DNA from: a virus
IMG/VR virus record: IMGVR_UViG_3300027863_000019
Coordinates: 1 to 64,000 of that record
Strand: one strand, 5' to 3'
Length of the DNA: 64,000 bases
Shown here: positions 1 to 11,227 of the stretch, piece after piece
Layout of the letters: each line of letters starts with the position of its first letter
Numbering within the stretch: position 1 is the stretch's first letter
Made by a program: the position numbers and the translations under genes
Notes under the pieces: model-generated
Databases searched by the model: none
What the model was told of the DNA's origin: nothing
Seen by the model: only the letters and a program-made list of their open reading frames with translations

Positions 1-82
1 ATCCATCAGAATCCATCAGAGTAATTTCTTCTATATATATATGTATGTATGTAGACGATCCTTCATCCATTAGCCTGCATGA

Positions 83-111
83 TTGAATTTTTACTATAAA
101 TATAGTATAAT
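83..111 (+). promoter_or_regulatory. Near-consensus sigma70 promoter facing the repeat array
   Basis: TTGAAT (83-88), 17-nt spacer, TATAAT (106-111). Confidence 0.7.
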
Positions 112-139
112 CAATTATAGATGATTTTGTAAGTCTCCT

Positions 140-1365
140 TTGAAACGACCTAACGACCAAAAAAAACAACGATCTAACAACCAAAAAAAAAAACCCCTTT
201 AACGTTTTGACGTATTGACGATCTAACGATCTAACAACCAAACAACCATACGATCATAACGATCATAACGATCTAACGTCCAAACGATCTAACGTTCTAA
301 CGTTCTAGTTACCTTAACGATCTAACAACCTAACGATCTAACGTATTGATGCATTGATGATCTAACGTATTGACGTTCTAACAACCTAACAACCTAACAA
401 CCTAACAACCAAAAAAAAACCCAACGATCTAACGTTCTAACAACCTAACGATCTAACGTATTGATGCATTGACGTGCTGACCTAACGCATCGACGTTTTG
501 GTGTTCAGAAAAACCTAACGATCTAACGTTCTAACGTTCTAGTTACCTTAACGATCTAACGTTTTGACGTATCGACGTATTGACGTTCTAACGATCTAAC
601 GATCTAACGATCTAACGATCTAACGATCTAACGTTTTGACGTCCAAACAACCATTCGATCATAACGATCTAACGATCTAACGATCTAACGACCTAACGAC
701 CAAAAAAAAACCTTCAACGATCTAACGATCTAACGACCAAAAAAACCCTTCAACGATCATAACGATCTAACGACCAAAAAAAAAAACCAACGATCTAACG
801 ATCATAACAACCTAACGACCAAAAAAAAAACCAACGATCATAACAACCTAACGTCCAAAAAAAAACCAACGACCTAACGTTCTGGTGTTCTAACAACCTT
901 AACGATCTAACAACCAAAAAAACCAACGATCTAACAACCAAAAAAACCAACGATCTAACGTCCAAACAACCAAACGATCTAACAACCAAAAAAAAAAACC
1001 CCCCCTAACGTTTTGACGTATCGACGATCTAACAACCTAACGTTCTAACAACCAAACAACCATACGATCATAACGATCTAACGTTTTGACGTTCTGGTGT
1101 TCTGGTGTTCTAATTACCTTAACGATCTAACGATCTAACGTTCTAGTTACCTTAACGATCTAACAACCTAACGATCTAACAATCTAACGTTCTAGTTACC
1201 TTAACGTTCTAACGTCCAAACAACCTAACGATCTAACGTCCAAACAACCATTCGATCATAACGATCTAACGATCTAACGATCTAACGATCTAACGATCTA
1301 ACGATCTAACGATCTAACGATCTAACGTTTTGACGTTTTGACGTTTTGACGTTCTGGTGTTCAGA
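140..1365. repeat. ~1.2 kb degenerate 8-mer minisatellite (AACGATCT and variants) with oligo-A runs and higher-order blocks
   Basis: 8 perfect AACGATCT copies at 1260-1323; variants CTAACGTT, CTAACAAC, TTGACGTT, TTGACGTA throughout; recurring blocks such as AAACAACCAT(A/T)CGATCATAACGATC and CTAACGTTCTAGTTACCTTAACG. Confidence 0.95.
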
Positions 1366-1501
1366 AAAAATTCCCAACTAATCTGAAAAATCGTGATGAC
1401 TGGGAAGCCCCTCTTTTTTTAGCAATAAAATGGTAATAGAAAATTAAAATGAATGATTTGTTTGTAAAGGGGTGTATAAATTAAAGAAGGAGGAAATTAA
1501 A

Positions 1502-1618
1502 ATGTATGGGTTGTTAAGAAGTGTGGTTATGGTTGTGGTGGTGTTGGGGTGGTTGTGGTGGGAATTAGGATGGGTGTTTGATGAAGTAATGAAGTTGAGT
1601 GAATTGTTAATAAGGTAA
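1502..1618 (+). CDS. 38-aa hydrophobic peptide encoded entirely without cytosine
   Basis: GAAGGAGG SD then ATG; MYGLLRSVVMVVVVLGWLWWELGWVFDEVMKLSELLIR*. Confidence 0.5.
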   Translation: MYGLLRSVVMVVVVLGWLWWELGWVFDEVMKLSELLIR

Positions 1619-1626
1619 AAATGTAT

Positions 1627-1658
1627 GGGTGGGTGGGTGGGTAATAAAGGAGGTAAAA
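1627..1658 (+). promoter_or_regulatory. G-quadruplex-motif leader plus SD, copy 1
   Basis: GGGTGGGTGGGTGGG (1627-1641), TAATAAAGGAGGTAAAA, ATG at 1659. Confidence 0.75.
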
Positions 1659-1868
1659 ATGAACGATTATGATTTTGGTTGGGTAAAGAAGGTTTATACC
1701 AAGAAGGTGGACCCGGTTCCGTCGGGGTGGTGTTTTAAGACGATGGCGGCAGAGTTAGAGTTAGATCGGGCAAAATGGGCGCATCCAAAGTTTCCGGAAT
1801 CTAATAACTCTATCGTCACCGAAGCGGGGTGGCGGGAAGTAGGCCGTTTCCGTGCTGAGAGGTGGTAG
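1659..1868 (+). CDS. Hypothetical early protein
   Basis: Strong SD; true start likely ATG 1659 (MNDYDFGW...) rather than 1629. Confidence 0.7.
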   Translation: MNDYDFGWVKKVYTKKVDPVPSGWCFKTMAAELELDRAKWAHPKFPESNNSIVTEAGWREVGRFRAERW

Positions 1869-1912
1869 GTTAAGAAACGTGGCCTTTTTATATCAACTAA
1901 AGGAGAAGAAAG

Positions 1913-2101
1913 ATGGAAAAGAAACTGTGGGAGGCGAAGAAGTTTTATCGCGAGGAGTTCCAAGACAAGGCGGGTAACAAAGCCTTATTACCCCTAGTGA
2001 TGGAAGATTACAAGAGGTTCCCGTTCCTGAAGGAGCGGGGCTATGAAGCCATCGAGGTCGTCCGCGTGGGACCCAAAGCCCTTAAAGTGAAATTCATCTA
2101 A
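1913..2101 (+). CDS. Hypothetical early protein
   Basis: AAGGAG SD, 62-aa ORF. Confidence 0.7.
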   Translation: MEKKLWEAKKFYREEFQDKAGNKALLPLVMEDYKRFPFLKERGYEAIEVVRVGPKALKVKFI

Positions 2102-2214
2102 CAACTAACAACCAATTGGGGGCGAAGTTGAGGCCCCCTTAACCAGAAGGAGGTGATGTAGTCTATGATACTAACTTAAAGGGTGGTTGGAATTTCTCAA
2201 AAAGGAGGAGAAAC

Positions 2215-2421
2215 ATGAGCTGTGAAAGTTGCAGGTTTAATGATCGTGAGACCTGCTTAATGCAGGTCAACATTAACGTAATCTACGAAGAGGGCAGTCA
2301 AAAGGCTGACTGCCCTTACTGGCAAAGTAAGCATTTTTATAAGGGGCTGCTGTCCTTCGGGGTAGCAGCCCCTGGTTGTTTAATTACACAGAAGGAGAGG
2401 AAAGATGGAAAAGAAACTTGA
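2215..2421 (+). CDS. Small Cys-containing hypothetical protein
   Basis: AAGGAGG SD; CESC...C...CPYW. Confidence 0.6.
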   Translation: MSCESCRFNDRETCLMQVNINVIYEEGSQKADCPYWQSKHFYKGLLSFGVAAPGCLITQKERKDGKET

Positions 2422-2892
2422 GGTTGTATCGAAGGATTCATTTAAGTTTCGGTGTCGGCTAGTTCATGCATGCGGTACTAACATTTGGAAGAACATTCAG
2501 TTTGAGATAGACTACGCTAACAAACTGAAGGAGGAAAAGAAAATTGACCGGCCGTGAACTGCAAAAGGCAAAGGAGAAAATTTATGTTGAAGTATGCGTA
2601 GTTTAATAATAATGGAAAGGAGGTGAATCCTAGATGGGACTAATACAAAGCATCTGGGAGGCGTGTAAAGATGGGCGGACCTTGGAACTTCATAAAGGGA
2701 AAACCCCGGTTGAGAGATAAACATGCAAGCGCTCCCGTATAAGGGATAGGCTAATGGGAGCGCCATGGATGAAGTAGTAATGGATGAAGTATGCGTTGTT
2801 TTGTAATAATAATTGAAAGGAGGTGATGCAGAATGTCTTAAATAACTTATGTCAAGAAGGATTAAAAATCTCAAAAAAGGAGGTGGCGTAAA

Positions 2893-3498
2893 ATGGATGA
2901 CTTCCTCACCCAGTTGATGGCATTCGCTCAGGAGAACGCCGTCGAGGCTGAAGAGGAATTCAAAAGCTACCAGTCGCGTAACTACAAGGCTGGTATCTAT
3001 GAGACGAAAATCGAACTGAACATTAACCTCCCCGGGGCAACCTGGGAAGAGGAGATGCACCGTGTGCAGGAGCGTCGTGGACTGTACGCGGTCACTGAGG
3101 ATGGCGGCAAGAACTTTGAAAGCCGCTATCCTAAAACGTTGAGCGAGTACATGTCGTTTCTAACCGCCATGTGCTCGCAGAATCAATTGGGACCGTTCGA
3201 GCAGCTATGCGTAGCTGTGCGGTTTTGGGATCCCGAATATAAGTTCACGGAGATCACCGTGTATGAAGACGGGATCCCAAAACGAATGAAGGTTGGATCG
3301 TATACCAAGTGGATTAAGTGGGGGAAGGATGAAGAATTTGAGATTACCTTTTCCCCATTTAATCCAATTCGGTTTCTTTACTTCCAACCCAGAAATAAGG
3401 GTTTCCGTGCCCTTATTGATAGGTGGAAGAATGTCGAGAAAGGCGGGCTGGAAGAACTCCTCCGACGTGCGGCGGAGGAGGTCTTTGAAAGAAAGTAA
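2893..3498 (+). CDS. Hypothetical early protein (201 aa)
   Basis: AAGGAGGT SD, long ORF. Confidence 0.8.
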   Translation: MDDFLTQLMAFAQENAVEAEEEFKSYQSRNYKAGIYETKIELNINLPGATWEEEMHRVQERRGLYAVTEDGGKNFESRYPKTLSEYMSFLTAMCSQNQLGPFEQLCVAVRFWDPEYKFTEITVYEDGIPKRMKVGSYTKWIKWGKDEEFEITFSPFNPIRFLYFQPRNKGFRALIDRWKNVEKGGLEELLRRAAEEVFERK

Positions 3499-3506
3499 AA
3501 CTAAAA

Positions 3507-3540
3507 GGGTGGGTGGGTGGGAATTAAAAGGAGGTAAAAA
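3507..3540 (+). promoter_or_regulatory. G-quadruplex-motif leader plus SD, copy 2
   Basis: GGGTGGGTGGGTGGGAATTAAAAGGAGGTAAAAA then ATG 3541. Confidence 0.8.
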
Positions 3541-4014
3541 ATGAGTGAAAATGGCGGTAAAGGCAAAGGCGTGGACATGAGCTTTTTAGCCGCAGTGCAG
3601 GAAGCTCCGGTAGGTCGGCGTGGTGGTGATGCTACTTCTGAGCGCGGCAAGGTTCGGGAGTTCTTTGTAGCTAACGTGTTGGATCCGATGATCGCGTCGC
3701 AGAAAACGGATCATCCGATCCGGATGGTGGAACTCACCGATGTGATCTTTCGGATGCGGAGCATGGCATTCGATAAGGATGGTAAGACCACCATCTACAT
3801 CGCTCTCGACCAGAAGTTGCAACCGGGACAGAAATGGCGCTTCCTGCCAAATGTGACTCCATGGGATGAACGTTACCGTGGGATCAGGAACTACCTGACG
3901 GGGATCTTAAAGACCCGGAAAGAGTTTACACTAGAGAAGCACCCCTCTAAGAAACACGGAGGGAAGGTGCTGACGTTCATCGTCTTCAAGCAGGCTAAGG
4001 CGGTGAAGGCTTAA
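3541..4014 (+). CDS. Hypothetical basic protein, probable paralog of 8821-9207
   Basis: Shared blocks WDERYRGIRNYL / KDDRYNRAYRYL and similar N-terminal pattern. Confidence 0.75.
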   Translation: MSENGGKGKGVDMSFLAAVQEAPVGRRGGDATSERGKVREFFVANVLDPMIASQKTDHPIRMVELTDVIFRMRSMAFDKDGKTTIYIALDQKLQPGQKWRFLPNVTPWDERYRGIRNYLTGILKTRKEFTLEKHPSKKHGGKVLTFIVFKQAKAVKA

Positions 4015-4020
4015 ACAATC

Positions 4021-4074
4021 TAACGCTCCTTAAATGGAGAGGGTGGGTGGGTGGGAATTAAAAGGAGGTAAAAA
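4021..4074 (+). promoter_or_regulatory. Hairpin, G4 motif and SD leader, copy 3
   Basis: TAACGCTCC-TTAAAT-GGAGA GGGTGGGTGGGTGGG AATTAAAAGGAGGTAAAA ATG. Confidence 0.85.
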
Positions 4075-4401
4075 ATGATTTACCTGACGACGACTTTTTC
4101 CCCGGCAATGCTGGGGAAAGTTGAAGCTACGGTCAAGGAAATTTCTCTTGACCAAGTGAAAGAAGGGCTGGAGGTTTTGAACTGGACATCTGCGGTTGGG
4201 CACGAAGCAACCGCAGAAGTTCTCTCAGTCATTTTAAACCGAAAGGTGGAGTTCAACAGGGCCAATCTGACCCTAGAAGCCGGTGACAGGATCTTTTGTG
4301 TCATTCCAAATTTCCGGGCCAATGTGGCTCGGGAATTTTCCAGGGAAGAAGTAGAAGCAGCGGGGTATCGCTGCTTCTTAATTTTGACCCGGAGAGTGTA
4401 G
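4075..4401 (+). CDS. acrIII-1: DUF1874 / AcrIII-1-like viral ring nuclease (anti-type III CRISPR)
   Basis: MIYL..FSPAML, SAVGHEATAEVLS, NR..LTL..GD, R....E...EE motifs typical of STIV B116 / SIRV gp29 / YddF family. Confidence 0.85.
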   Translation: MIYLTTTFSPAMLGKVEATVKEISLDQVKEGLEVLNWTSAVGHEATAEVLSVILNRKVEFNRANLTLEAGDRIFCVIPNFRANVAREFSREEVEAAGYRCFLILTRRV

Positions 4402-4439
4402 GCAGACGTCGGTTTCAAACAGATCTAAAAACTAAAAAA

Positions 4440-4482
4440 GGGAGGCAGGGTGGGAAGGCGGGTAAAAGAAAGGAGGTGCAAA
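4440..4482 (+). promoter_or_regulatory. Variant four-G-tract leader plus SD, copy 4; downstream ORF truncated (MSEVFVGK*)
   Basis: GGGAGGCAGGGTGGGAAGGCGGG TAAAAGAAAGGAGGTGCAAA ATG 4483. Confidence 0.55.
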
Positions 4483-4651
4483 ATGAGTGAAGTCTTCGTT
4501 GGCAAGTAGCGTTGTATACGTTACTATGGTGGGGAAGCCGTTTGAACTACCGTGGCTTCAATCCTACGAAAGGCACCTTCGCTGGTAAGAAGATTGTCTT
4601 CGTCTGGCAAGAACCTATTAAAAAAAGTTTAAAGTTTAAAGGAGGCTTAAT

Positions 4652-4909
4652 ATGAATAGAAAATCTGGTGCTCGTCAACAATTGGAGTGGCCTCTGGAGG
4701 TTCGTTACATTTACGAGATGAGACAGTTCGGCATGGACCAGCACGCGGTTCTTGAACTCCTGCAGGATGAGTTTCCGGAAATGTCGTTATCGGAGATCAA
4801 GCGTCAAATCAAGCCGTTCCGGAAACTAGCGGAGAAGTGGTACTCCGTGGGCGACAAAATCGTCCACGGTATTATCCGCGGCTGGATTATGGCAGCGATG
4901 GAGAAGTAG
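4652..4909 (+). CDS. Hypothetical early protein
   Basis: AAGGAGG SD, 85 aa. Confidence 0.7.
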   Translation: MNRKSGARQQLEWPLEVRYIYEMRQFGMDQHAVLELLQDEFPEMSLSEIKRQIKPFRKLAEKWYSVGDKIVHGIIRGWIMAAMEK

Positions 4910-4937
4910 CCTTTTAAGAAGGAGGTGGTGTAAACTA

Positions 4938-5051
4938 ATGTTACGGGTTAGTAACCCAGATTCGTTTTGGGTGCTGATTGTGCTCCTGTGGATTATGATC
5001 TTTGTGATCCGCGGAGTCAAGAAGCTGTCGAGAGGTAAGTATATCGCTTAA
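4938..5051 (+). CDS. 37-aa single-TM peptide, paralog of 8016-8123
   Basis: MLRVSNPDSFWVLIVLLWIMIFVIRGVKKLSRGKYIA; AAGGAGGT SD. Confidence 0.7.
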   Translation: MLRVSNPDSFWVLIVLLWIMIFVIRGVKKLSRGKYIA

Positions 5052-5060
5052 CTTTAACTA

Positions 5061-5078
5061 GGGGAGCTTCGGCTCCCC
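5061..5078 (+). terminator. UUCG-loop hairpin (terminator or stability hairpin)
   Basis: GGGGAGC-TTCG-GCTCCCC; no U-tract on + strand. Confidence 0.45.
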
Positions 5079-5094
5079 AAAGGAGGGAGGAATC

Positions 5095-5301
5095 ATGACT
5101 AAAGGAATAGACATTGAAGTGAAGCACATTAAAGCGACATCCAGTTTAACAGTGTGTTTCACCTATGAAGCGTTTGCTCAAATGTTGGGTTACGCTTCGA
5201 TGGCTGAGTTGTTGGAAGCTCATGGTTCCATTGATGTTGCCATTGGTTATTGGATAGACAAGTGGCAGGACATGGGCTTGCGGGCGAGAATGGAGGTGTA
5301 G
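5095..5301 (+). CDS. Hypothetical early protein
   Basis: GGAGG SD, 68 aa. Confidence 0.7.
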   Translation: MTKGIDIEVKHIKATSSLTVCFTYEAFAQMLGYASMAELLEAHGSIDVAIGYWIDKWQDMGLRARMEV

Positions 5302-5302
5302 T

Positions 5303-5497
5303 ATGACTGAAGTCCTTGATGAACTAATCACTAAGTTGAGGGGTGAAGTTGAGGAATTGAAACGCCATGCAGAAGGCTACATCGATGGCGTTATTTCCGC
5401 CAAAGAGTACTATCTTAAGACCTTAACGACTGTAGATGAAATAACAGTCGTCTTACAGGAATTGGCCGACTTGGCGATGGATGCGGCTAAGAAGTAA
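5303..5497 (+). CDS. Hypothetical helical protein
   Basis: GGAGGT SD, 64 aa. Confidence 0.7.
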   Translation: MTEVLDELITKLRGEVEELKRHAEGYIDGVISAKEYYLKTLTTVDEITVVLQELADLAMDAAKK

Positions 5498-5502
5498 TCC
5501 TT

Positions 5503-5555
5503 TAACTGCTCCTTAAATGGAGCGGGCGGGTGGGTGGGAAATAAGGAGGATCTAA
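5503..5555 (+). promoter_or_regulatory. Hairpin, G4 motif and SD leader, copy 5
   Basis: TAACTGCTCC-TTAAAT-GGAGC GGGCGGGTGGGTGGG AAATAAGGAGGATCTAA ATG. Confidence 0.85.
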
Positions 5556-5747
5556 ATGAACGATCTGGAAGTAGAGGTTTTTGGTAAGGTTGTTTTCACA
5601 GAGGATGGGGGTGTAATAATCCCCGTTGATCCTCGCAGCTTTATACGGATCCAACGGAAGTTTCCTCGGTATTACGAACAGACAGGCCCTGAGGCCTGTC
5701 CTACACTCCACCACGGCAAGATCTGCGTGGTGTTAAAGAGTGAGTGA
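5556..5747 (+). CDS. Hypothetical early protein
   Basis: Directly follows leader copy 5. Confidence 0.7.
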   Translation: MNDLEVEVFGKVVFTEDGGVIIPVDPRSFIRIQRKFPRYYEQTGPEACPTLHHGKICVVLKSE

Positions 5748-5761
5748 TCGCATGAAGTCTC

Positions 5762-5811
5762 TAACGCCTCTTAAATGAGGAGGGTGGGTGGGTGGGAAGT
5801 AAGGAGGAGTT
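5762..5811 (+). promoter_or_regulatory. Hairpin, G4 motif and SD leader, copy 6 (compensatory stem change)
   Basis: TAACGCCTC-TTAAAT-GAGGA GGGTGGGTGGGTGGG AAGTAAGGAGGAGTT TTG. Confidence 0.85.
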
Positions 5812-6306
5812 TTGAAAGTTGCAAAGAAGTTGAAACCCATTGTGAAGTGTGAAACGTTTGAGCAGCTGGTGGCGGCTGATGAGGAACTCGCTGAACTCTT
5901 CAAACAGAGGTATCAGTTGGAAGTTAAAATCAAAGAAGTCGAGCAGAGGAGGCAGAATATCATACTTCGGGGGTTGCCCCAACCGATTTGGGGTTGGGGG
6001 ACGAAAGTCTACATTGCGGATGGGCGCGAGGTTTTCGGTCCTGAAGAAGGGACTGAAGTTGTCCGCGTTAATAAGGTCATCTTAAACTACGATGACCTTA
6101 TTGACGTCTACGATTTGGCGGGTGTCCGCATCGAGAACGTTGATGATCATAATAAGGGGATGAACTACTACCGAAAGAACCAGGTGCTGTTGAAGTTCGG
6201 TGGTGGTACAGCCTGGCTGTTTGCTGCAGGTCCACATCCCATCGTAACAGATGAAGAATGGTTCTCAATAAAGCGTGGAGTTATTCCGTCTCGCTTAGTG
6301 AAGTAA
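5812..6306 (+). CDS. Hypothetical early protein (164 aa)
   Basis: TTG start after leader copy 6. Confidence 0.75.
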   Translation: MKVAKKLKPIVKCETFEQLVAADEELAELFKQRYQLEVKIKEVEQRRQNIILRGLPQPIWGWGTKVYIADGREVFGPEEGTEVVRVNKVILNYDDLIDVYDLAGVRIENVDDHNKGMNYYRKNQVLLKFGGGTAWLFAAGPHPIVTDEEWFSIKRGVIPSRLVK

Positions 6307-6405
6307 CCCTTACTTATAAGGAGGATCTGTTATGGCGAAAGATTCAATTCCAGATGGCGTGGTAGAAGTTCGGTGCGTGAATTACTTCATCCAGAAGTAA
6401 ACCAT

Positions 6406-6454
6406 TAACTGCTCCTTAATGGAGAGGGTGGGAAGGTGGGAATGGAGGTGTAGT
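6406..6454 (+). promoter_or_regulatory. Hairpin, degenerate G-tract and SD leader, copy 7
   Basis: TAACTGCTCC-TTAAT-GGAGA GGGTGGGAAGGTGGG AATGGAGGTGTAGT ATG. Confidence 0.75.
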
Positions 6455-6709
6455 ATGAGTGAAGAGTGTATTGGCGCCATGTGGAGGAAGATGGTGGGAG
6501 TGGCTCCAAACCCCGACGATGTCGTTGTCCACGAAATTTGTGGACACGGCAGAGTGGTTGGAAGTATTCATCCATATGACCAGGTTGCAAAACCTTCTAC
6601 GATTTTCAGGATGCCGGCCACGTTCACCCCTCCGAAGGGGATGAGGCTGGTTGGCCTCACCATAGGTCATACCAGCTATGACTGGACAGAAGAGGACCCG
6701 AATGCATGA
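6455..6709 (+). CDS. Hypothetical early protein
   Basis: ATG 6455 after leader copy 7 (MSEECIGAMW...). Confidence 0.65.
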   Translation: MSEECIGAMWRKMVGVAPNPDDVVVHEICGHGRVVGSIHPYDQVAKPSTIFRMPATFTPPKGMRLVGLTIGHTSYDWTEEDPNA

Positions 6710-6725
6710 AGCTAAGGTCTAAATC

Positions 6726-6770
6726 TAACGCTCCTTAAATGGAGAGGGTGGGTGGGAAGGGAGGATCTAA
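6726..6770 (+). promoter_or_regulatory. Hairpin, G4 motif and SD leader, copy 8
   Basis: TAACGCTCC-TTAAAT-GGAGA GGGTGGGTGGGAAGGG AGGATCTAA ATG. Confidence 0.85.
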
Positions 6771-7241
6771 ATGAACGATCTTAAAGTGAAGGTTTCTGTC
6801 TTTATCGTCTTTATCGTTTTATACTTTATCCTTTTTACTGACTTTACTTCAGTAACCGTTACTGAAGTTACTGACGGTGACTCGGTTACAGTTAATTACA
6901 GTGAGAAGGTAAGGCTGGGACATATTGATGCCCCAGAATGGAATCAACCATATGGAAAGGAAGCGAGCGAGCGTGTAAAGGAACTTGCCCTTAATAAGAG
7001 GGTAAAAATCAAGCGCTCAGGTAAGGATAAATACGGTCGTACGCTCGCTGAGATATATCTGGCGGATGGTTCGAATCTAAATCATAGGCTAGTTCAGGAG
7101 GGACTAGCTTGGCATTACAGGCAGTTCAGCAACAATAGGTTTTATCAACAGCTCGAGTTTGAGGCTCGAGCGAAACGCAGGGGGCTATGGAAAGATACTA
7201 ATCCGACCGCCCCCTGGAATTGGAGGAGAGGTATGAGATGA
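6771..7241 (+). CDS. Thermonuclease (SNase-like) with N-terminal TM or signal
   Basis: DGDSV, VRLGHIDAPE, DKYGRTLA, LVQEGLAW, AR..RRGLW motifs. Confidence 0.92.
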   Translation: MNDLKVKVSVFIVFIVLYFILFTDFTSVTVTEVTDGDSVTVNYSEKVRLGHIDAPEWNQPYGKEASERVKELALNKRVKIKRSGKDKYGRTLAEIYLADGSNLNHRLVQEGLAWHYRQFSNNRFYQQLEFEARAKRRGLWKDTNPTAPWNWRRGMR

Positions 7242-7292
7242 AATGAAAGTGATCGGGATCCTATTAACATGAACATTAAAAGGAGGTGTAGT

Positions 7293-7523
7293 ATGAAACT
7301 GGTTGGAAGTCTGGTGGTTCTTTATCCGGGAGTGTACGATGCGAATGAGAACTGGATGACGGTTATCATTCCAGCGTACATGGGACAGGTTGAGATTGGA
7401 GTTCAAATCAACTACGTTCATATCGAGAGGGCGCTGTCGGGCCTCAAGGATGAATCGGATGTGTTCGCTTTCTTGAATGCCTACAAGCCGTGGGCATACG
7501 TTAACTATGAGTGCTGGGCATGA
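7293..7523 (+). CDS. Hypothetical early protein
   Basis: AAGGAGGTGTAGT ATG 7293. Confidence 0.65.
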   Translation: MKLVGSLVVLYPGVYDANENWMTVIIPAYMGQVEIGVQINYVHIERALSGLKDESDVFAFLNAYKPWAYVNYECWA

Positions 7524-7687
7524 GATGAAACGACCCCGCCTGGAAAGTAACTTACGAGTATAAACCAATCTAGGGGAGGAGTACATGGTTAAGTTGATTC
7601 ATCCTTCACGTAACTTGGGTTGCTTGGCTGCGGTGTGTGTACGTTGAAGAATAACATGAACATTAAGATGCGAAAGGAGGTAGTGTT

Positions 7688-7963
7688 ATGATGATCGAAA
7701 CGATCGAGTTGGGAAGATCCGCGTTAAGCGGGTCTGGGATCAGTTGGTTCGCAGAACTCTCCATTACCGACGGAGAGTTCCAGTCTATCTGCACTCGGTC
7801 TTTTAGGGGCTTTGGTGCAAAAAGTCCCTGTCATTACATGGTTTATTACCCTCAAATGCCGCTATTATGCCTCACGCGGTTCAAGGGTAAGGTGTCTCAT
7901 GGACATTACATTAATCCAGAAACGGGGGTTCAAACTCAATACACGTATAGCAAACAGGATTGA
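7688..7963 (+). CDS. Hypothetical early protein
   Basis: AAGGAGGT SD, 91 aa. Confidence 0.65.
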   Translation: MMIETIELGRSALSGSGISWFAELSITDGEFQSICTRSFRGFGAKSPCHYMVYYPQMPLLCLTRFKGKVSHGHYINPETGVQTQYTYSKQD

Positions 7964-8015
7964 TGCAGTTCAAGAAAATCTATTATCGCTCTTGGTAAGG
8001 AGGTGATAACTTACT

Positions 8016-8123
8016 TTGTGGATCAACACTAGTGGAGTGAATCCGTCCAGCTTCTGGATCACAATCATTCTGATCTGGATTGCGATCGGAGTGATTCGTG
8101 GTGTGAAGAAGCTTCGTAAGTAG
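8016..8123 (+). CDS. 35-aa single-TM peptide, paralog of 4938-5051
   Basis: TTG start; MWINTSGVNPSSFWITIILIWIAIGVIRGVKKLRK; AAGGAGGTGA SD. Confidence 0.65.
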   Translation: MWINTSGVNPSSFWITIILIWIAIGVIRGVKKLRK

Positions 8124-8136
8124 TTTAACCTTTTAC

Positions 8137-8163
8137 AGGGGATCGAAAGATCCCCTTTCTTTT
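8137..8163 (+). terminator. Rho-independent terminator closing the early array
   Basis: AGGGGATC-GAAA-GATCCCCT followed by TTCTTTT. Confidence 0.85.
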
Positions 8164-8449
8164 AATGTGATGTAAGGAGTGAGTGCACTGCACATTTAAC
8201 GGTTAACCCTTGCAGTACCCAACTAACAAACCTAAAGGTTTGAATTTAGCCCCGTGGTGCCACGGGGTAATTACGTAAGCCCCGTCACCGCACAAATTCA
8301 TTCCGATGTACATAGGCGCCAAAAACTGATTGCCACGAACTTATGTCATGAGTAATTGAACTCAGCCCGGGTAGTGCAACGATGTAAACCAATCACTTTG
8401 TTGATACCCAACTAACCTCCCACCCTGTGTCAACTCCTAAGCTCAAGAT

Positions 8450-8528
8450 AACTTAATGAGCCTCTTAAACCAACTAATCCTTGAGCCCTGAAAAAACTTA
8501 ATGAGCCTCTTAAACCAACTAATCCTTG
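8450..8528. repeat. 34-bp direct repeat, two copies, 45-bp period
   Basis: AACTTAATGAGCCTCTTAAACCAACTAATCCTTG at 8450 and 8495. Confidence 0.85.
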
Positions 8529-8672
8529 GAGTCTTGAAAAAACTTCGTTGAATATTTCCATTTGCCCCAGTTAAAATAAAATAAAAAATTGATGCCAAAT
8601 AATAAATCCCCTAAAGATCAGGAGAGGTGTTCGGGGGAAGCGGATGCTCCAAAAAGAAAATAAGAGCCCCAT

Positions 8673-8714
8673 AAATTTTCCCCCTTTTAAAATGCACTAT
8701 GTACCAGGTATAAT
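8673..8714 (+). promoter_or_regulatory. Phage promoter motif TTTTC(T/C)CCCTTT...TATAAT
   Basis: 24 nt between the CCC and the -10 hexamer, as in other copies. Confidence 0.7.
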
Positions 8715-8820
8715 ATTTTTTAAATAAATAAATAAAATTCCACAATTAATTAACCCAGGCAGGACCCGCTCATTAGAGCGGTAACATAAATAACCCCCAA
8801 ACAATAGGAGGTACCAAACA

Positions 8821-9207
8821 ATGTCTAAAGAAACCAAAACCGAAACTGAAGCGAAGAATGTTGCGTCCGATCTGTCCGCTCTTATGGCGGAAGCATCTCA
8901 TCAGGGTCGCACGGTTTTAGGCGGGGGGATCATGGGTAAGTTCAAAGACCGCCTGATTTCCGTTCTCACAGAAGCGGTCAACGAGGCCAAGCAGACCGGC
9001 GAAGAAGTCAAACCGCTCCCCGCGGGCGCCGTGGTTCGTTTCTTCCTCAAACGGACCGATATTTTTGAAACCTTAAACAAGGACGATAGGTACAATCGGG
9101 CTTACAGATACCTCATACAAGCCAAGAAAACCATCAACCGGATCGGGTGGGACATTGATAAGGTAGGAAAGACTTCCTACCTGATCTACACCGGCAAGAT
9201 AGTTTAA
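8821..9207 (+). CDS. Hypothetical monocistronic protein, possibly DNA-binding
   Basis: AGGAGGT SD, own promoter and terminator; resembles 3541-4014. Confidence 0.8.
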   Translation: MSKETKTETEAKNVASDLSALMAEASHQGRTVLGGGIMGKFKDRLISVLTEAVNEAKQTGEEVKPLPAGAVVRFFLKRTDIFETLNKDDRYNRAYRYLIQAKKTINRIGWDIDKVGKTSYLIYTGKIV

Positions 9208-10933: not shown

Positions 10934-11227
10934 AGGGAGGAACGGAGTATGAAGTTCAATAAGAAAGCTGTGAAAGAAATAACGTTGGAGGGTGGTGAAA
11001 TGGCTGCGGAGATGGAGGAAGCTAAGTGGCCTTCGTAAAGCGAGTATCCGTAGAGCGCTTCGAAGTCGTTATGGTGTAGGCTCCTATTAGCTATACGAGC
11101 CTTCATGGGTTTCGTACTCCTGGATTTTACAATATTGGGTCTCGGTTAATCGAGAAAGGTGAACAGATGCCGAATGATAAGTTTACCTGGAAGGCCTGGT
11201 ACATGCCCGACTTTTAAAGGAGGTAAT

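Follow-up and report, generated by a model that had tools for sequence, protein, structure and literature searches.

The early block and its leaders

The window, that is, the whole 64-kb stretch of DNA analysed here, comes from a large, uncultured phage of ~155 kb. Eight leaders, in each of which a tract of G runs stands ahead of a Shine-Dalgarno sequence (SD), belong to one early block, a single predicted transcription unit extending from the promoter at 83–111 to the terminator at 8137–8156. The features of this block are as follows.

83–111, +, sigma-70-like promoter opening the block, TTGAAT-17-TATAAT (consensus scan, 10/12 matches; predicted)
120–1370, +, non-coding 8-mer array, 1.2 kb, with 39 copies of TCTAACG (motif counts)
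1612–1658, +, leader 1, no hairpin: A/T-rich run, perfect G tract 1627–1641, SD GGAGG 1649–1653, start 1659
1659–1868, +, cassette gene, 69 aa, no family
3498–3540, +, leader 2, no hairpin: perfect G tract 3507–3521, SD 3530–3534, start 3541
3541–4014, +, cassette gene g0, 157 aa, kept in all relatives
4018–4074, +, leader 3: ATCTAACG 4018–4025, CTCC 4026–4029, loop 4030–4035, GGAG 4036–4039, perfect G tract 4041–4055, SD 4064–4068, start 4075
4075–4401, +, cassette gene, 108 aa, DUF1874/STIV_B116-like (AcrIII-1 family)
4429–4482, +, leader 4, no hairpin: G tract 4440–4462 (GGG ×4, loops 5, 1, 5), SD 4472–4476, start 4483
4483–4509, +, 8-codon stub behind leader 4 (sequence)
5503–5555, +, leader 5: TAACTG 5503–5508, GCTCC 5508–5512, loop 5513–5518, GGAGC 5519–5523, G tract 5524–5538, SD 5545–5549, start 5556
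5556–5747, +, cassette gene, 63 aa
5760–5811, +, leader 6: TCTAACG 5760–5766, CCTC 5767–5770, loop 5771–5776, GAGG 5777–5780 (compensated stem), perfect G tract 5782–5796, SD 5803–5807, TTG start 5812
5812–6306, +, cassette gene, 164 aa, no family, TTG start at 5812
6406–6454, +, leader 7: TAACTG 6406–6411, CTCC 6412–6415, loop TTAAT 6416–6420, GGAG 6421–6424, G tract 6426–6440 (third run GG), SD 6444–6448, start 6455
6455–6709, +, cassette gene g4, 84 aa
6723–6770, +, leader 8: ATCTAACG 6723–6730, CTCC 6731–6734, loop 6735–6740, GGAG 6741–6744, G tract 6746–6761, its fourth run overlapping the SD 6759–6764, start 6771
6771–7241, +, cassette gene, 156 aa, staphylococcal-nuclease homologue (Pfam PF00565, 95.4 bits)
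8137–8156, +, intrinsic-terminator-like hairpin and T run at the end of the block (predicted)

The array has a G content of 11.6% and no GGG. Its TCTAACG motif also marks the starts of three hairpin leaders (4019, 5760 and 6724) and occurs once on the + strand of the remaining 56 kb.

The DUF1874 product matches Pfam PF08960 with 50.5 bits (cut-off 26), has the PDB relatives 2j6b, 2x4i and 2j85, and carries a GH motif that aligns with His47 of SIRV1 gp29, the catalytic His (10.1101/778746). Membership of the AcrIII-1 family and the presence of this residue agree with the original prediction that one cassette is an anti-CRISPR. The same prediction listed the other cassettes as anti-defence candidates. 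This came from position alone and, the staphylococcal-nuclease homologue apart, no family or fold says so; the anti-defence label is supported for one cassette only. The structure model of the g0 protein gave a winged-helix-like fold with Z of 5–7 only. Around the stub, window positions 4448–4559 align with 687–795 of the related contig L015, which has ATA at the start-codon position, and the stub appears to be the remnant of a decayed cassette.

G tracts of the window

Scanning both strands of the 64 kb for G3+N1–7 ×4 gave sites at 1627, 3507, 4041, 4440, 5524, 5782 and 6746 only, and the degenerate tract at 6426, with one GG run, was recovered by a relaxed search. The G-quadruplex-type motifs of the window are thus eight, all on the + strand from 1627 to 6761 and each ending 9–20 nt 5' of a start codon. 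Four are perfect GGGTGGGTGGGTGGG tracts (1627, 3507, 4041 and 5782), three are four-tract variants (5524, 4440 and 6746) and one is degenerate, in line with the places and counts first read from the letters. A search for (GGGT)3GGG with up to two mismatches yielded 11 overlapping matches at 7 sites of the 64-kb window, again all on the + strand, where 0.04 were expected.

In five of the eight leaders a hairpin of 4–5 bp abuts the tract, with the form CTCC-TTAA(A)T-GGAG at 4026, 5509, 6412 and 6731 and CCTC-TTAAAT-GAGG at 5767; the window search found no further such hairpins in that context. The positions originally given for these leaders (4021, 5503, 5762, 6406 and 6726) are their TAAC starts, and their G tracts begin at 4041, 5524, 5782, 6426 and 6746. 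With 18 hairpin leaders as input, a covariance model recovered all eight window copies, five in full and three in part (leader 1 at 1612–1649). It gave no other match at E<0.1, either in the 64 kb or in the 8 kb that precede the window; in the first reading of the letters, too, no such motif was noticed elsewhere in the window. The leaders read the same, letter for letter, in three independent assemblies (L008, L009 and L010) and are therefore not assembly artefacts.

Conservation of G runs and stem pairing

The comparison set comprised nine related metagenomic contigs, perhaps five or six lineages. From the window and six relatives, 29 leaders were tabulated, many of them orthologous or paralogous copies, and further copies are present in L112–L114. 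A perfect G3N1G3N1G3N1G3 tract is found in 14 of the 29 (loop letters T 33, C 7, A 2) and the canonical three-tetrad motif in 17; in the other 12, a G-quadruplex would have to have two tiers or a bulge. None of the 29 leaders has fewer than four runs of GG or longer. The core tract opens and closes with GGG in every copy but one (L011 2977), while its inner runs can be as short as GG. All 29 have one orientation, with 9–20 nt from tract end to start codon, and the tract is always immediately preceded by an A-rich run or a hairpin. G runs with free loops of 1–2 nt are the textbook G-quadruplex signature, and constant runs with variable loop letters fit a G-quadruplex better than a fixed sequence.

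The hairpin is missing in 11 of the 29 tabulated leaders, about two thirds of the copies having one. Four stem sequences were observed (CTCC/GGAG, CCTC/GAGG, GCTC/GAGC and GCC/GGC), the second of which, found in leader 6, recurs in L015 at 1543–1589. The four core stem pairs show zero unpaired cells and compensatory change in two pairs, with ~3 independent compensatory events. The covariation score was reached by 0 of 500 shuffles and stem pairing was 86%, versus 23–63% in slid controls, bearing out the covariation first noticed at a single leader. Loops vary widely (TTAAAT, TTAAT, TTAACT, TTTACT, GTAA, TCT, ATAT, ATAG and AACT). By this pattern, selection preserves G runs and stem pairing, not letters. 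The leader is, as predicted, a phage cis-element, specific to the coding strand, confined to the early block and conserved even in relatives with coding DNA too divergent for blastn to detect.

The leaders might give each cassette its own promoter, as the PeSL (promoter-early stem-loop) elements of T4-type phages do (PMC2839356), read by an RNA polymerase that the phage encodes or modifies, with the G tract and the A/T-rich segment upstream as recognition sequence. A repeated motif does stand ahead of each gene, and TTAAAT/TAAAAT-like hexamers lie ~5 nt upstream of several tracts, but the consensus scan found no sigma-70-like site (−35/−10 pair) at any of the eight leaders, relatives have TCT, GTAA, ATAT or AACT in place of the TTAAAT loop, a sequence-specific promoter would not be expected to keep its runs while its loop letters vary, and a strong promoter and a terminator already frame the block, all of which makes this reading highly improbable. 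It is likewise very doubtful that the leaders are sites for a protein reading GGG repeats or GGA motifs with no G-quadruplex, such as a phage translational repressor or a CsrA/Hfq-type host factor. One GGA motif in the 3' arm of the hairpin and another in the SD stand 25–30 nt apart, the block encodes the basic, winged-helix-like 157-aa protein, and the array, which shares TCTAACG with the leaders, could titrate a factor; however, no candidate protein was identified, other stems have GAGC or GGC where the arm has GGA, and the run-and-loop signature is that of a G-quadruplex.

Cassette exchange at the leaders

Homology blocks between relatives end within leaders. When the window is compared with L023, the leaders are the only blastn-detectable DNA, the flanking proteins being homologous at 39–43% identity. 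Breakpoints between L011 and the window, respectively, lie at 2043 = 4040, 2448 = 3505, 3002 = 4068, 2998 = 5292 and 3261 = 5550, and crossovers fall either where the tract begins on its 5' side or between tract and SD. The DUF1874 gene occupies two different junctions. In the window it follows g0, a junction from which it is missing in the other relatives; L011 has it with g1 on one side and g0 on the other, and in L015, a contig that begins inside this gene, g0 comes next after it. The hairpin leader that follows g0 is succeeded by five different genes. Cassettes of 63 and 48 aa are present or absent among relatives, the 63-aa gene being missing at its window junction in L011 and present in L015, and the hairpin travels together with the end of the gene that precedes it.

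As the breaks in homology fall within leaders, cassettes of one gene each, made up of G tract, SD, gene and hairpin, have been reordered, inserted and lost there, which sustains the earlier proposal of a recombination junction of the PeSL type. The 3' halves of leaders 2 and 3 are identical (22 nt at 100%), a trace of recent exchange. The exchange looks like homologous recombination in shared sequence. Breakpoints alone are no proof of a selected recombination role, as any repeat would collect crossovers.

T4-type PeSLs are ~100 bp long and combine a consensus sigma-70 promoter with a strong stem-loop terminator (PMC2839356, PMC4122927). Both they and the present leaders are repeated composite intergenic motifs that run up to the SD and start codon of the gene behind them, are concentrated among small orphan early genes, and contain the crossovers of indels and replacements between close relatives. 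In contrast to PeSLs, the leaders are ~50 nt long, with no promoter-like hexamers, no terminator and a hairpin of only 3–5 bp; their core is a tract predicted to form a G-quadruplex, and their cassettes are promoterless within one operon. Integron gene cassettes, separated by attC sites (imperfect palindromes of 57–141 bp), are also promoterless, co-oriented single genes behind one promoter, and their separating elements are likewise conserved in structure more than in sequence; unlike in integrons, no integrase domain is recorded here among the genes within 10 kb on either side.

In Neisseria gonorrhoeae, the pilE G-quadruplex and the gar R-loop initiate pilin gene conversion, with RecA/RecQ dependence shown for that system (PMC3547852, PMC13463697); its loop pattern is 1-2-1 with T (PMC6614823). 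The leaders resemble it in that their non-transcribed strand carries a G3 tract with short T loops, adjoining recombination sites, at a locus that recombination diversifies under immune pressure. The pilE element differs in being one site per locus, upstream of one gene, with its own small-RNA promoter and no SD link. By analogy, the leaders could be a purely DNA-level recombination device, in which transcription of the early block frees the G-rich non-template strand to form a G-quadruplex, the C strand being held in an R-loop, and cassette exchange is promoted because replication stalls or recombinases are attracted, proximity to the SD merely reflecting the small intergenic space. The crossover positions at the tract, the motif of pilE kind (G3 runs, T loops of 1–2 nt; PMC6614823), the matching strand geometry (PMC3547852, PMC13463697) and the constant runs with free loop letters speak for such a device. 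Nevertheless, it seems quite unlikely: a second-order benefit would have to hold all 29 copies in one orientation 9–20 nt from a start, hairpin covariation and fixed SD spacing are left unexplained, and homologous recombination does not require a G-quadruplex.

Leaders in the mRNA

Many genes of the early block have an equally strong SD without a G tract, and therefore initiation as such does not require the tract. A first account of the leaders in RNA, the main idea of the original prediction, is a G-quadruplex-assisted anti-SD switch that times early-gene translation: CUCCUU would pair either locally with GGAG, leaving the SD free, or with AAGGAG across the folded G-quadruplex, masking it, in response to potassium, temperature or a helicase. 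CTCCTT is indeed the exact reverse complement of AAGGAG, and CCTT occurs in or just 5' of most hairpin leaders. ViennaRNA with G-quadruplex energies predicted the long-range clamp in some leaders only (window 5782 and 6426; L011 3237 and 4195; L015 1567; L023 1769), with a mean probability of an unpaired SD of 0.34 in hairpin leaders versus 0.55 in hairpin-less ones. The complementarity is nonetheless far from universal: neither hairpin nor pyrimidine arm is present in 11 of the 29 tabulated leaders, stems of the GCTC and GCC types do not match the SD, and some leaders with those stems lack CCTT. As, in addition, the energy model for a G-quadruplex inside a loop is heuristic and the local hairpin has four pairs only, we regard the switch as unlikely.

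The early operon of T7, transcribed by the host polymerase from a strong promoter and starting with anti-defence functions, has intercistronic RNase III sites, and with the 5' stabilisers of Bacillus phage mRNAs these are precedents for a role in RNA processing or stability. As in T7, a conserved RNA element occupies each gap of a promoter-driven early block; the T7 sites, however, are long imperfect duplexes, whereas here stems have 3–5 bp and the conserved part is the G tract. In such a scheme the early RNA would be cut in the A/U-rich stretch or hairpin loop 5' of the tract, the G-quadruplex and SD-bound ribosome would shield the 5' end of the downstream cistron from 5'-dependent decay, and the small hairpin would close the upstream cistron at its 3' end. 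The presence of a single element in each intercistronic gap of one transcription unit, the constant A-rich run or hairpin immediately 5' of the tract, the hairpin that travels with the upstream gene and the G+C-rich hairpins just 5' of the SD in other gaps (2342–2373 and 5064–5081) are compatible with it. Yet RNase III would need longer stems, which are also marginal here for protecting a 3' end, and an engineered RNA G-quadruplex left mRNA lifetime unchanged (PMC11087576), so that processing is rather improbable.

[quoted passage not shown] (2024) proposed a physical-barrier model (PMC11087576). The order in the mRNA (hairpin, G-quadruplex, RBS) is that of our leaders. The synthetic 5' untranslated region has its G-quadruplex 43 nt from the RBS and a hairpin of 4–12 bp, with larger effects from longer loops (PMC11087576), whereas the leaders are natural and repeated, with a minimal predicted G-quadruplex (1-nt loops) 1–8 nt from the SD. 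With a minimal G-quadruplex so close to the RBS, the effect could be of opposite sign.

We give an even chance to the reading that the leaders are a portable intercistronic module, with a translation-initiation role in the mRNA and a crossover site for cassette exchange; the module most likely acts on translation initiation, in mRNA. It would consist of a 3–5-bp hairpin, a 15–23-nt tract of four G runs and a strong SD. In the mRNA, the tract may form an RNA G-quadruplex at the 5' edge of the ribosome-binding site and serve as a compact structural barrier or insulator for initiation, so that an incoming cassette would gain its own strong, context-independent initiation site, the hairpin adding to the effect. 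In the DNA, the repeated 30–55 bp would be a substrate for homologous exchange, possibly stimulated by G-quadruplex/R-loop formation on the non-template strand.

Leaders in the early gene block

All eight intercistronic leaders named in the original prediction were found by pattern scans and by a covariance model. Seven plus-strand sites match (GGGT)3GGG with at most two mismatches, against 0.04 expected (window scan). The motif G3+N1–7 ×4, sought on both strands of the 64 kb, occurs at 1627, 3507, 4041, 4440, 5524, 5782 and 6746 only, the tract at 6426 being a variant with one GG run. A start codon lies 9–20 nt 3′ of every tract end, with a strong Shine–Dalgarno sequence (SD) between. The eight copies fall within 5.2 kb, with none elsewhere in 64 kb. 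A covariance model made from 18 hairpin leaders recovered exactly these copies and gave no further match across the window and the 8 kb preceding it; together with the both-strand G3 scan, this confirmed the claim that the window holds no such motif elsewhere. Identical leaders are present in three independent assemblies. Rfam covariance models gave no leader match at E up to 1 (window 1–9000).

The window belongs to a metagenomic phage contig of ∼155.6 kb. Its large ORFs are all on the plus strand, and it codes for a family A DNA polymerase fused to UDG, a DnaB-like helicase, an intein, a PEP-synthase homologue and four tRNAs. Megablast gave no match to named phages, the DNA polymerase is <26% identical to that of any named phage, and relatives in IMG/VR were found for the polymerase region only. 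Matches to the PEP-synthase homologue come from genomes of many phyla, at 43% identity or less, and point to no one host. Amino-acid composition suggests a mesophilic host, at about 33 °C; thermophily, which would void a 4-bp hairpin, was rejected on this prediction.

The block containing the leaders is bounded by two features:

83–111, plus strand, sigma-70-like promoter (consensus scan)
8137–8156, plus strand, strong terminator-like hairpin (promoter/terminator scan)

Between them lie a 1.2 kb non-coding 8-mer array and then ∼22 small genes (1472–8123). Sigma-70 promoters at the leaders were ruled out by the promoter scan. Because no sigma-70-like hexamer pair coincides with any leader, the simplest reading is that the leaders separate the cistrons of a polycistronic early RNA, which would carry the G tract in the sense orientation.

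Other parts of the block were also inspected. In the assembly L009 (1–6500, upstream of the window start), genes beyond the array run the opposite way (ribonucleotide reductase with an intein, 5′–3′ exonuclease), which places the array and promoter at a divergence point of the genome, not at a physical contig end. The motif (A)TCTAACG opens three hairpin leaders (4018–4025, 5760–5766 and 6723–6730) and is also the unit of the array (120–1370), where it has 39 copies, all on the plus strand, against one in the other 56 kb of that strand. RNA from the array would be C-rich, G-poor (G 11.6%, no GGG) and untranslated; given this composition and the shared motif, a candidate role for the array is that of a decoy for some factor contacting the leaders as well, or of a Rho-loading or Rho-trapping stretch. 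Further gaps in the block carry G+C-rich hairpins without a T run shortly 5′ of the SD (2342–2373, 2110–2130 and 5064–5081), one example being GGGGAGC-TTCG-GCTCCCC followed by AAAGGAGG. Since such gaps have stable hairpins near the SD, the common requirement may be a stable structure next to the SD, the G tract being one way to supply it. A stretch of ∼320 nt (2571–2890) with very short ORFs only contains two copies of a 40-nt unit (2588–2626 and 2785–2826) ending in a strong SD; immediately 5′ of the first unit, the related contig L011 has an insertion, a 48-aa gene preceded by a G-tract leader of its own. The first small ORF of the block (1502–1618), in G/T-rich DNA just 5′ of leader 1, codes for a hydrophobic 38-aa peptide rich in Trp, Val and Leu.

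Conservation of the G tract

Relatives were found via homologues of the 157-aa protein encoded behind leader 2, one free-stem metagenome pattern scan and contig look-ups; a second homologue search, with the 201-aa protein, gave no new contigs, and no homologue of the 157-aa protein was found in IMG/VR. The set of nine related contigs (given as L011–L017, L023 and L112–L114) is small and has some redundancy. In all, 29 leaders were tabulated, from the window and six of the related contigs, and L112–L114 contain several more.

Four runs of at least GG are present in all 29 tabulated leaders, always on the coding strand and 9–20 nt 5′ of the start codon. The canonical three-tetrad motif (G3 ×4) occurs in 17 of the 29; in the remainder one inner run is GG and the adjoining loop is longer. 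Fourteen of the 29 have a perfect G3N1G3N1G3N1G3, with loop letters T (33), C (7) and A (2). The core tract begins and ends with GGG in every tabulated copy except that at L011 2977. Among the seven orthologous leaders before the 157-aa gene, which include GGGTGGGTGGGTGGG, GGGAGGGTGGGTGGG, GGGAGGGTGGGCGGG, GGGAGGTAGGGTGGG and GGGTGGAAGGGAGGG, the runs are kept and the letters vary. At the sequence level this run pattern agrees with selection for a G-quadruplex (G4) or for some factor that reads GGG repeats. Kept G runs with free letters fit neither pairing with a fixed partner nor a sequence-specific promoter, and a Chi-like site was dismissed on position and orientation, by reasoning only. 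Depletion of C runs, a sign of selection for G4 folding, was not seen in the early block. Between the window and L023, the leader is the only DNA detectable by blastn, the flanking proteins being homologous at 39–43% identity; the leader thus appears to outlast its surroundings.

A hairpin adjoining the tract

TAAC(T)G and a 4–5 bp hairpin adjoin the tract in five of the eight window leaders, the stem being CCTC/GAGG at 5767–5780 and CTCC/GGAG in the remaining hairpin leaders. The covariation proposed from these stems was borne out in the relatives, where four stem types (CTCC/GGAG, CCTC/GAGG, GCTC/GAGC and GCC/GGC) are all perfectly paired and all adjoin the tract. The loops are TTAAAT, TTAAT, TTAACT, TTTACT, GTAA, TCT, ATAT, ATAG and AACT, and the −10-like loop is not conserved among relatives. 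An alignment of the hairpin leaders (A1) has 0 unpaired cells in the four core pairs and compensatory change in two pairs. Its covariation score was reached by 0 of 500 shuffles, and 86% of cells are paired in the true register versus 23–63% in slid registers. These comparisons point to a real conservation of the hairpin as a structure, with support that is modest because independent events number about three. The free-stem metagenome scan gave 15 matches, among which the relatives were L017 and L023 only; it yielded no unbiased new stems, the new stems coming from other leaders on these two contigs. Stems are 3–5 bp without a T run, and the hairpin is missing from 11 of the 29 tabulated leaders.

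Turnover of cassettes at the leaders

When gene content between leaders was compared in relatives, the leaders were conserved and the cassettes (single small genes behind a leader) differed. In the comparison of the window with L011, blastn blocks break off either at a tract's first G or at the SD:

L011 2043 = window 4040, block end
L011 2448 = window 3505, block end
L011 3002 = window 4068, block end
L011 2998 = window 5292, block end
L011 3261 = window 5550, block end

The first two of these breakpoints lie at most 2 nt from the first G, a position for which homology alone could suffice. Each upstream gene brings its hairpin type, each downstream gene its spacer and SD; therefore, the exchanged unit is tract–SD–gene–hairpin.

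Relatives share a skeleton of 201-aa gene, leader, 157-aa gene, further genes, 84-aa gene and nuclease, with different inserts. The position of the DUF1874 gene varies: 3′ of the 157-aa gene (window), between that gene and the 201-aa gene (L011) or immediately 5′ of the 157-aa homologue (L015). In the other relatives it is missing from these junctions. The hairpin leader of the 157-aa gene has five different genes downstream among relatives, and cassettes of 63 aa (window) and 48 aa (with its own leader, L011 929–1097) are present or absent. Leaders 2 and 3 of the window have an identical 3′ half, which we read as the trace of a swap. Block ends and the cassette map show, by sequence comparison, that cassettes turn over at the leaders, as anticipated in the proposal of junctions for single-gene cassette shuffling.

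Two junctions have unusual contents. Behind leader 4, the segment 4483–4650 contains an 8-codon ORF only, and the homologous segment of L015 (687–835) has ATA at the place of the start codon; the cassette looks decayed, with the leader kept in both the window phage and L015. In L023, a 165-aa protein (1393–1890, minus strand) whose match to a methyltransferase domain is weak (20 bits, slightly below cut-off) stands where other relatives have the nuclease cassette.

Genes carried in the cassettes

One cassette had been called an anti-CRISPR, and its family assignment was upheld. The 108-aa product of 4075–4401 matches PF08960 (50.5 bits against a cut-off of 26, E 2.4e-13), and its GH motif aligns with the GH of 2x4i and 2j6b; the catalytic His47 of SIRV1 gp29 is absolutely conserved (10.1101/778746). 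By sequence it is a member of the DUF1874/AcrIII-1 family with the catalytic histidine, and family membership makes it a putative ring nuclease, predicted to cleave cyclic tetra-adenylate and block type III CRISPR.

The extension of an anti-defence role to the other cassettes fared less well: most of the flanked genes have no family in Pfam or PHROGs. Taken from position and timing, ‘anti-defence cassettes’ is a reasonable guess. The last cassette codes for a staphylococcal-nuclease homologue. The 157-aa protein (3541–4014), kept in all relatives, has a winged-helix-like domain in its model (pLDDT 77). VIA-align gave generic winged-helix matches only (Z 5–7), the best including winged helices of kleisin and Wadjet JetA and winged-helix domains of replication and transcription factors, and Foldseek gave no match at E 1e-3. 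The central segment of this protein is repeated eight times in one 1447-aa protein of the representative library (P0013). An atlas search with the 164-aa protein was uninformative as to function.

Possible modes of action

Unlike cassette turnover, action of the leader at the RNA level is something we infer throughout. An RNA G4 in a bacterial 5′UTR raises translation (Lee et al. 2024, PMC11087576); an upstream hairpin adds to this, up to 12-fold, the G4 being required for the hairpin effect. No change was seen in ribosome affinity, in RBS accessibility or in mRNA lifetime, and a physical-barrier model was proposed (PMC11087576). The phage leaders show the same part order as this engineered hairpin–G4–RBS 5′UTR, and for this reason we chose to read them as translation-initiation elements. 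We put at about even the chance that the leader would serve as a compact insulator or barrier bordering the SD on its 5′ side and so make the initiation of each cassette independent of upstream sequence. The effect may go either way, up or down, because the G4 is minimal and only 1–8 nt from the SD.

An anti-SD switch had also been proposed; in it CUCCUU would pair with AAGGAG, the folded G4 lying between the two. ViennaRNA with G4 energies predicts this pairing in several hairpin leaders, and the SD is left unpaired with a mean probability of 0.34 in hairpin leaders versus 0.55 in hairpin-less ones, heuristic G4 terms being used. As 11 of the 29 tabulated leaders are without the pyrimidine arm and GCTC and GCC stems are not SD-complementary, such a switch is not general; as a prediction it stays alive for a subset of hairpin leaders.

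Two serious rivals to the translation-initiation reading are a role in RNA processing or stability and a DNA G4/R-loop that triggers recombination, as at pilE (PMC3547852, PMC13463697). The strand geometry suits the latter, the G-rich strand being the probable non-template strand by gene orientation and the promoter/terminator scan, and breakpoints lie at or next to the tract, although homology alone could give the same. A role in DNA only would explain neither the covariation of the hairpin nor why the start codon lies at a fixed distance. It is conceivable, if rather improbable, that the two levels combine, with the G tract serving both as DNA and as RNA at the centre of a promoterless cassette system that has no integrase. 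In the DNA, a G4 on the non-template strand of an early operon under heavy transcription would actively trigger single-gene exchange between co-infecting relatives; in the RNA, a G4 abutting the SD would ensure immediate translation of the gene landing behind it. The tract would then be a self-contained ‘plug-and-play’ socket for anti-defence genes.

Comparison with known systems

The promoter-early stem-loop (PeSL) of T4-type phages is a repeated junction serving both expression and modular shuffling of small early genes (PMC2839356, PMC4122927). The leaders resemble it as a repeated intergenic motif around small orphan genes in a plastic early region, with indel and replacement breakpoints between relatives inside the motif. 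PeSLs, however, have a sigma-70 consensus early promoter and a stable terminator or attenuator stem-loop. As the leaders have neither, with stems of a few base pairs and no T run, they are not PeSLs but a different solution of the same kind. They carry the PeSL concept, in which gene shuffling in phage accessory regions is driven by repeated regulatory junctions, over to a chemically different junction, and show an AcrIII-1-type gene moving between such junctions.

Integrons have an adjacent tyrosine-recombinase integrase and attC sites of 57–141 bp. An integron array was rejected: no integrase domain occurs among the called genes within 10 kb on either side, and the 3–5 bp hairpins include no attC-sized palindrome. 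VIPR guide-RNA arrays are long runs of alternating GGY/NN with a 5-nt period (10.64898/2026.04.26.720920); a VIPR array was rejected, the tracts having a 4-nt period and a length of 15–23 nt and forming no tandem blocks.

With 5′UTR RNA G4 elements the leaders share four short-loop G runs on the sense strand, upstream of the RBS. Stable short-loop G4 motifs are reported to be rare in bacterial genomes (PMC6614823), and the literature searched contained no natural array of such motifs tied to RBSs. In the phage clade one element exists in ∼35 natural forms (perfect or with a G vacancy, with or without hairpin, four stem types), a ready-made mutational series on the effect of an SD-adjacent RNA G4 in bacteria. 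Provided that the leaders mark the first cassettes to be expressed in infection, they offer a sequence handle for new early, possibly counter-defence, genes in metagenomes.

Two IMG/VR pattern scans (3 and 41 single matches, mostly G+C-rich or poly-G) revealed no other contig with a leader array. An unrelated 41 kb viral contig (L001, IMGVR_UViG_3300036980_000356) has a single intercistronic junction of the same build (11146–11200, minus strand), in the order stop codon, 6–7 bp hairpin (AGTCCC/GGGGACT), (GGGT)3GGG, TTAA, AGGAGG and GTG start.
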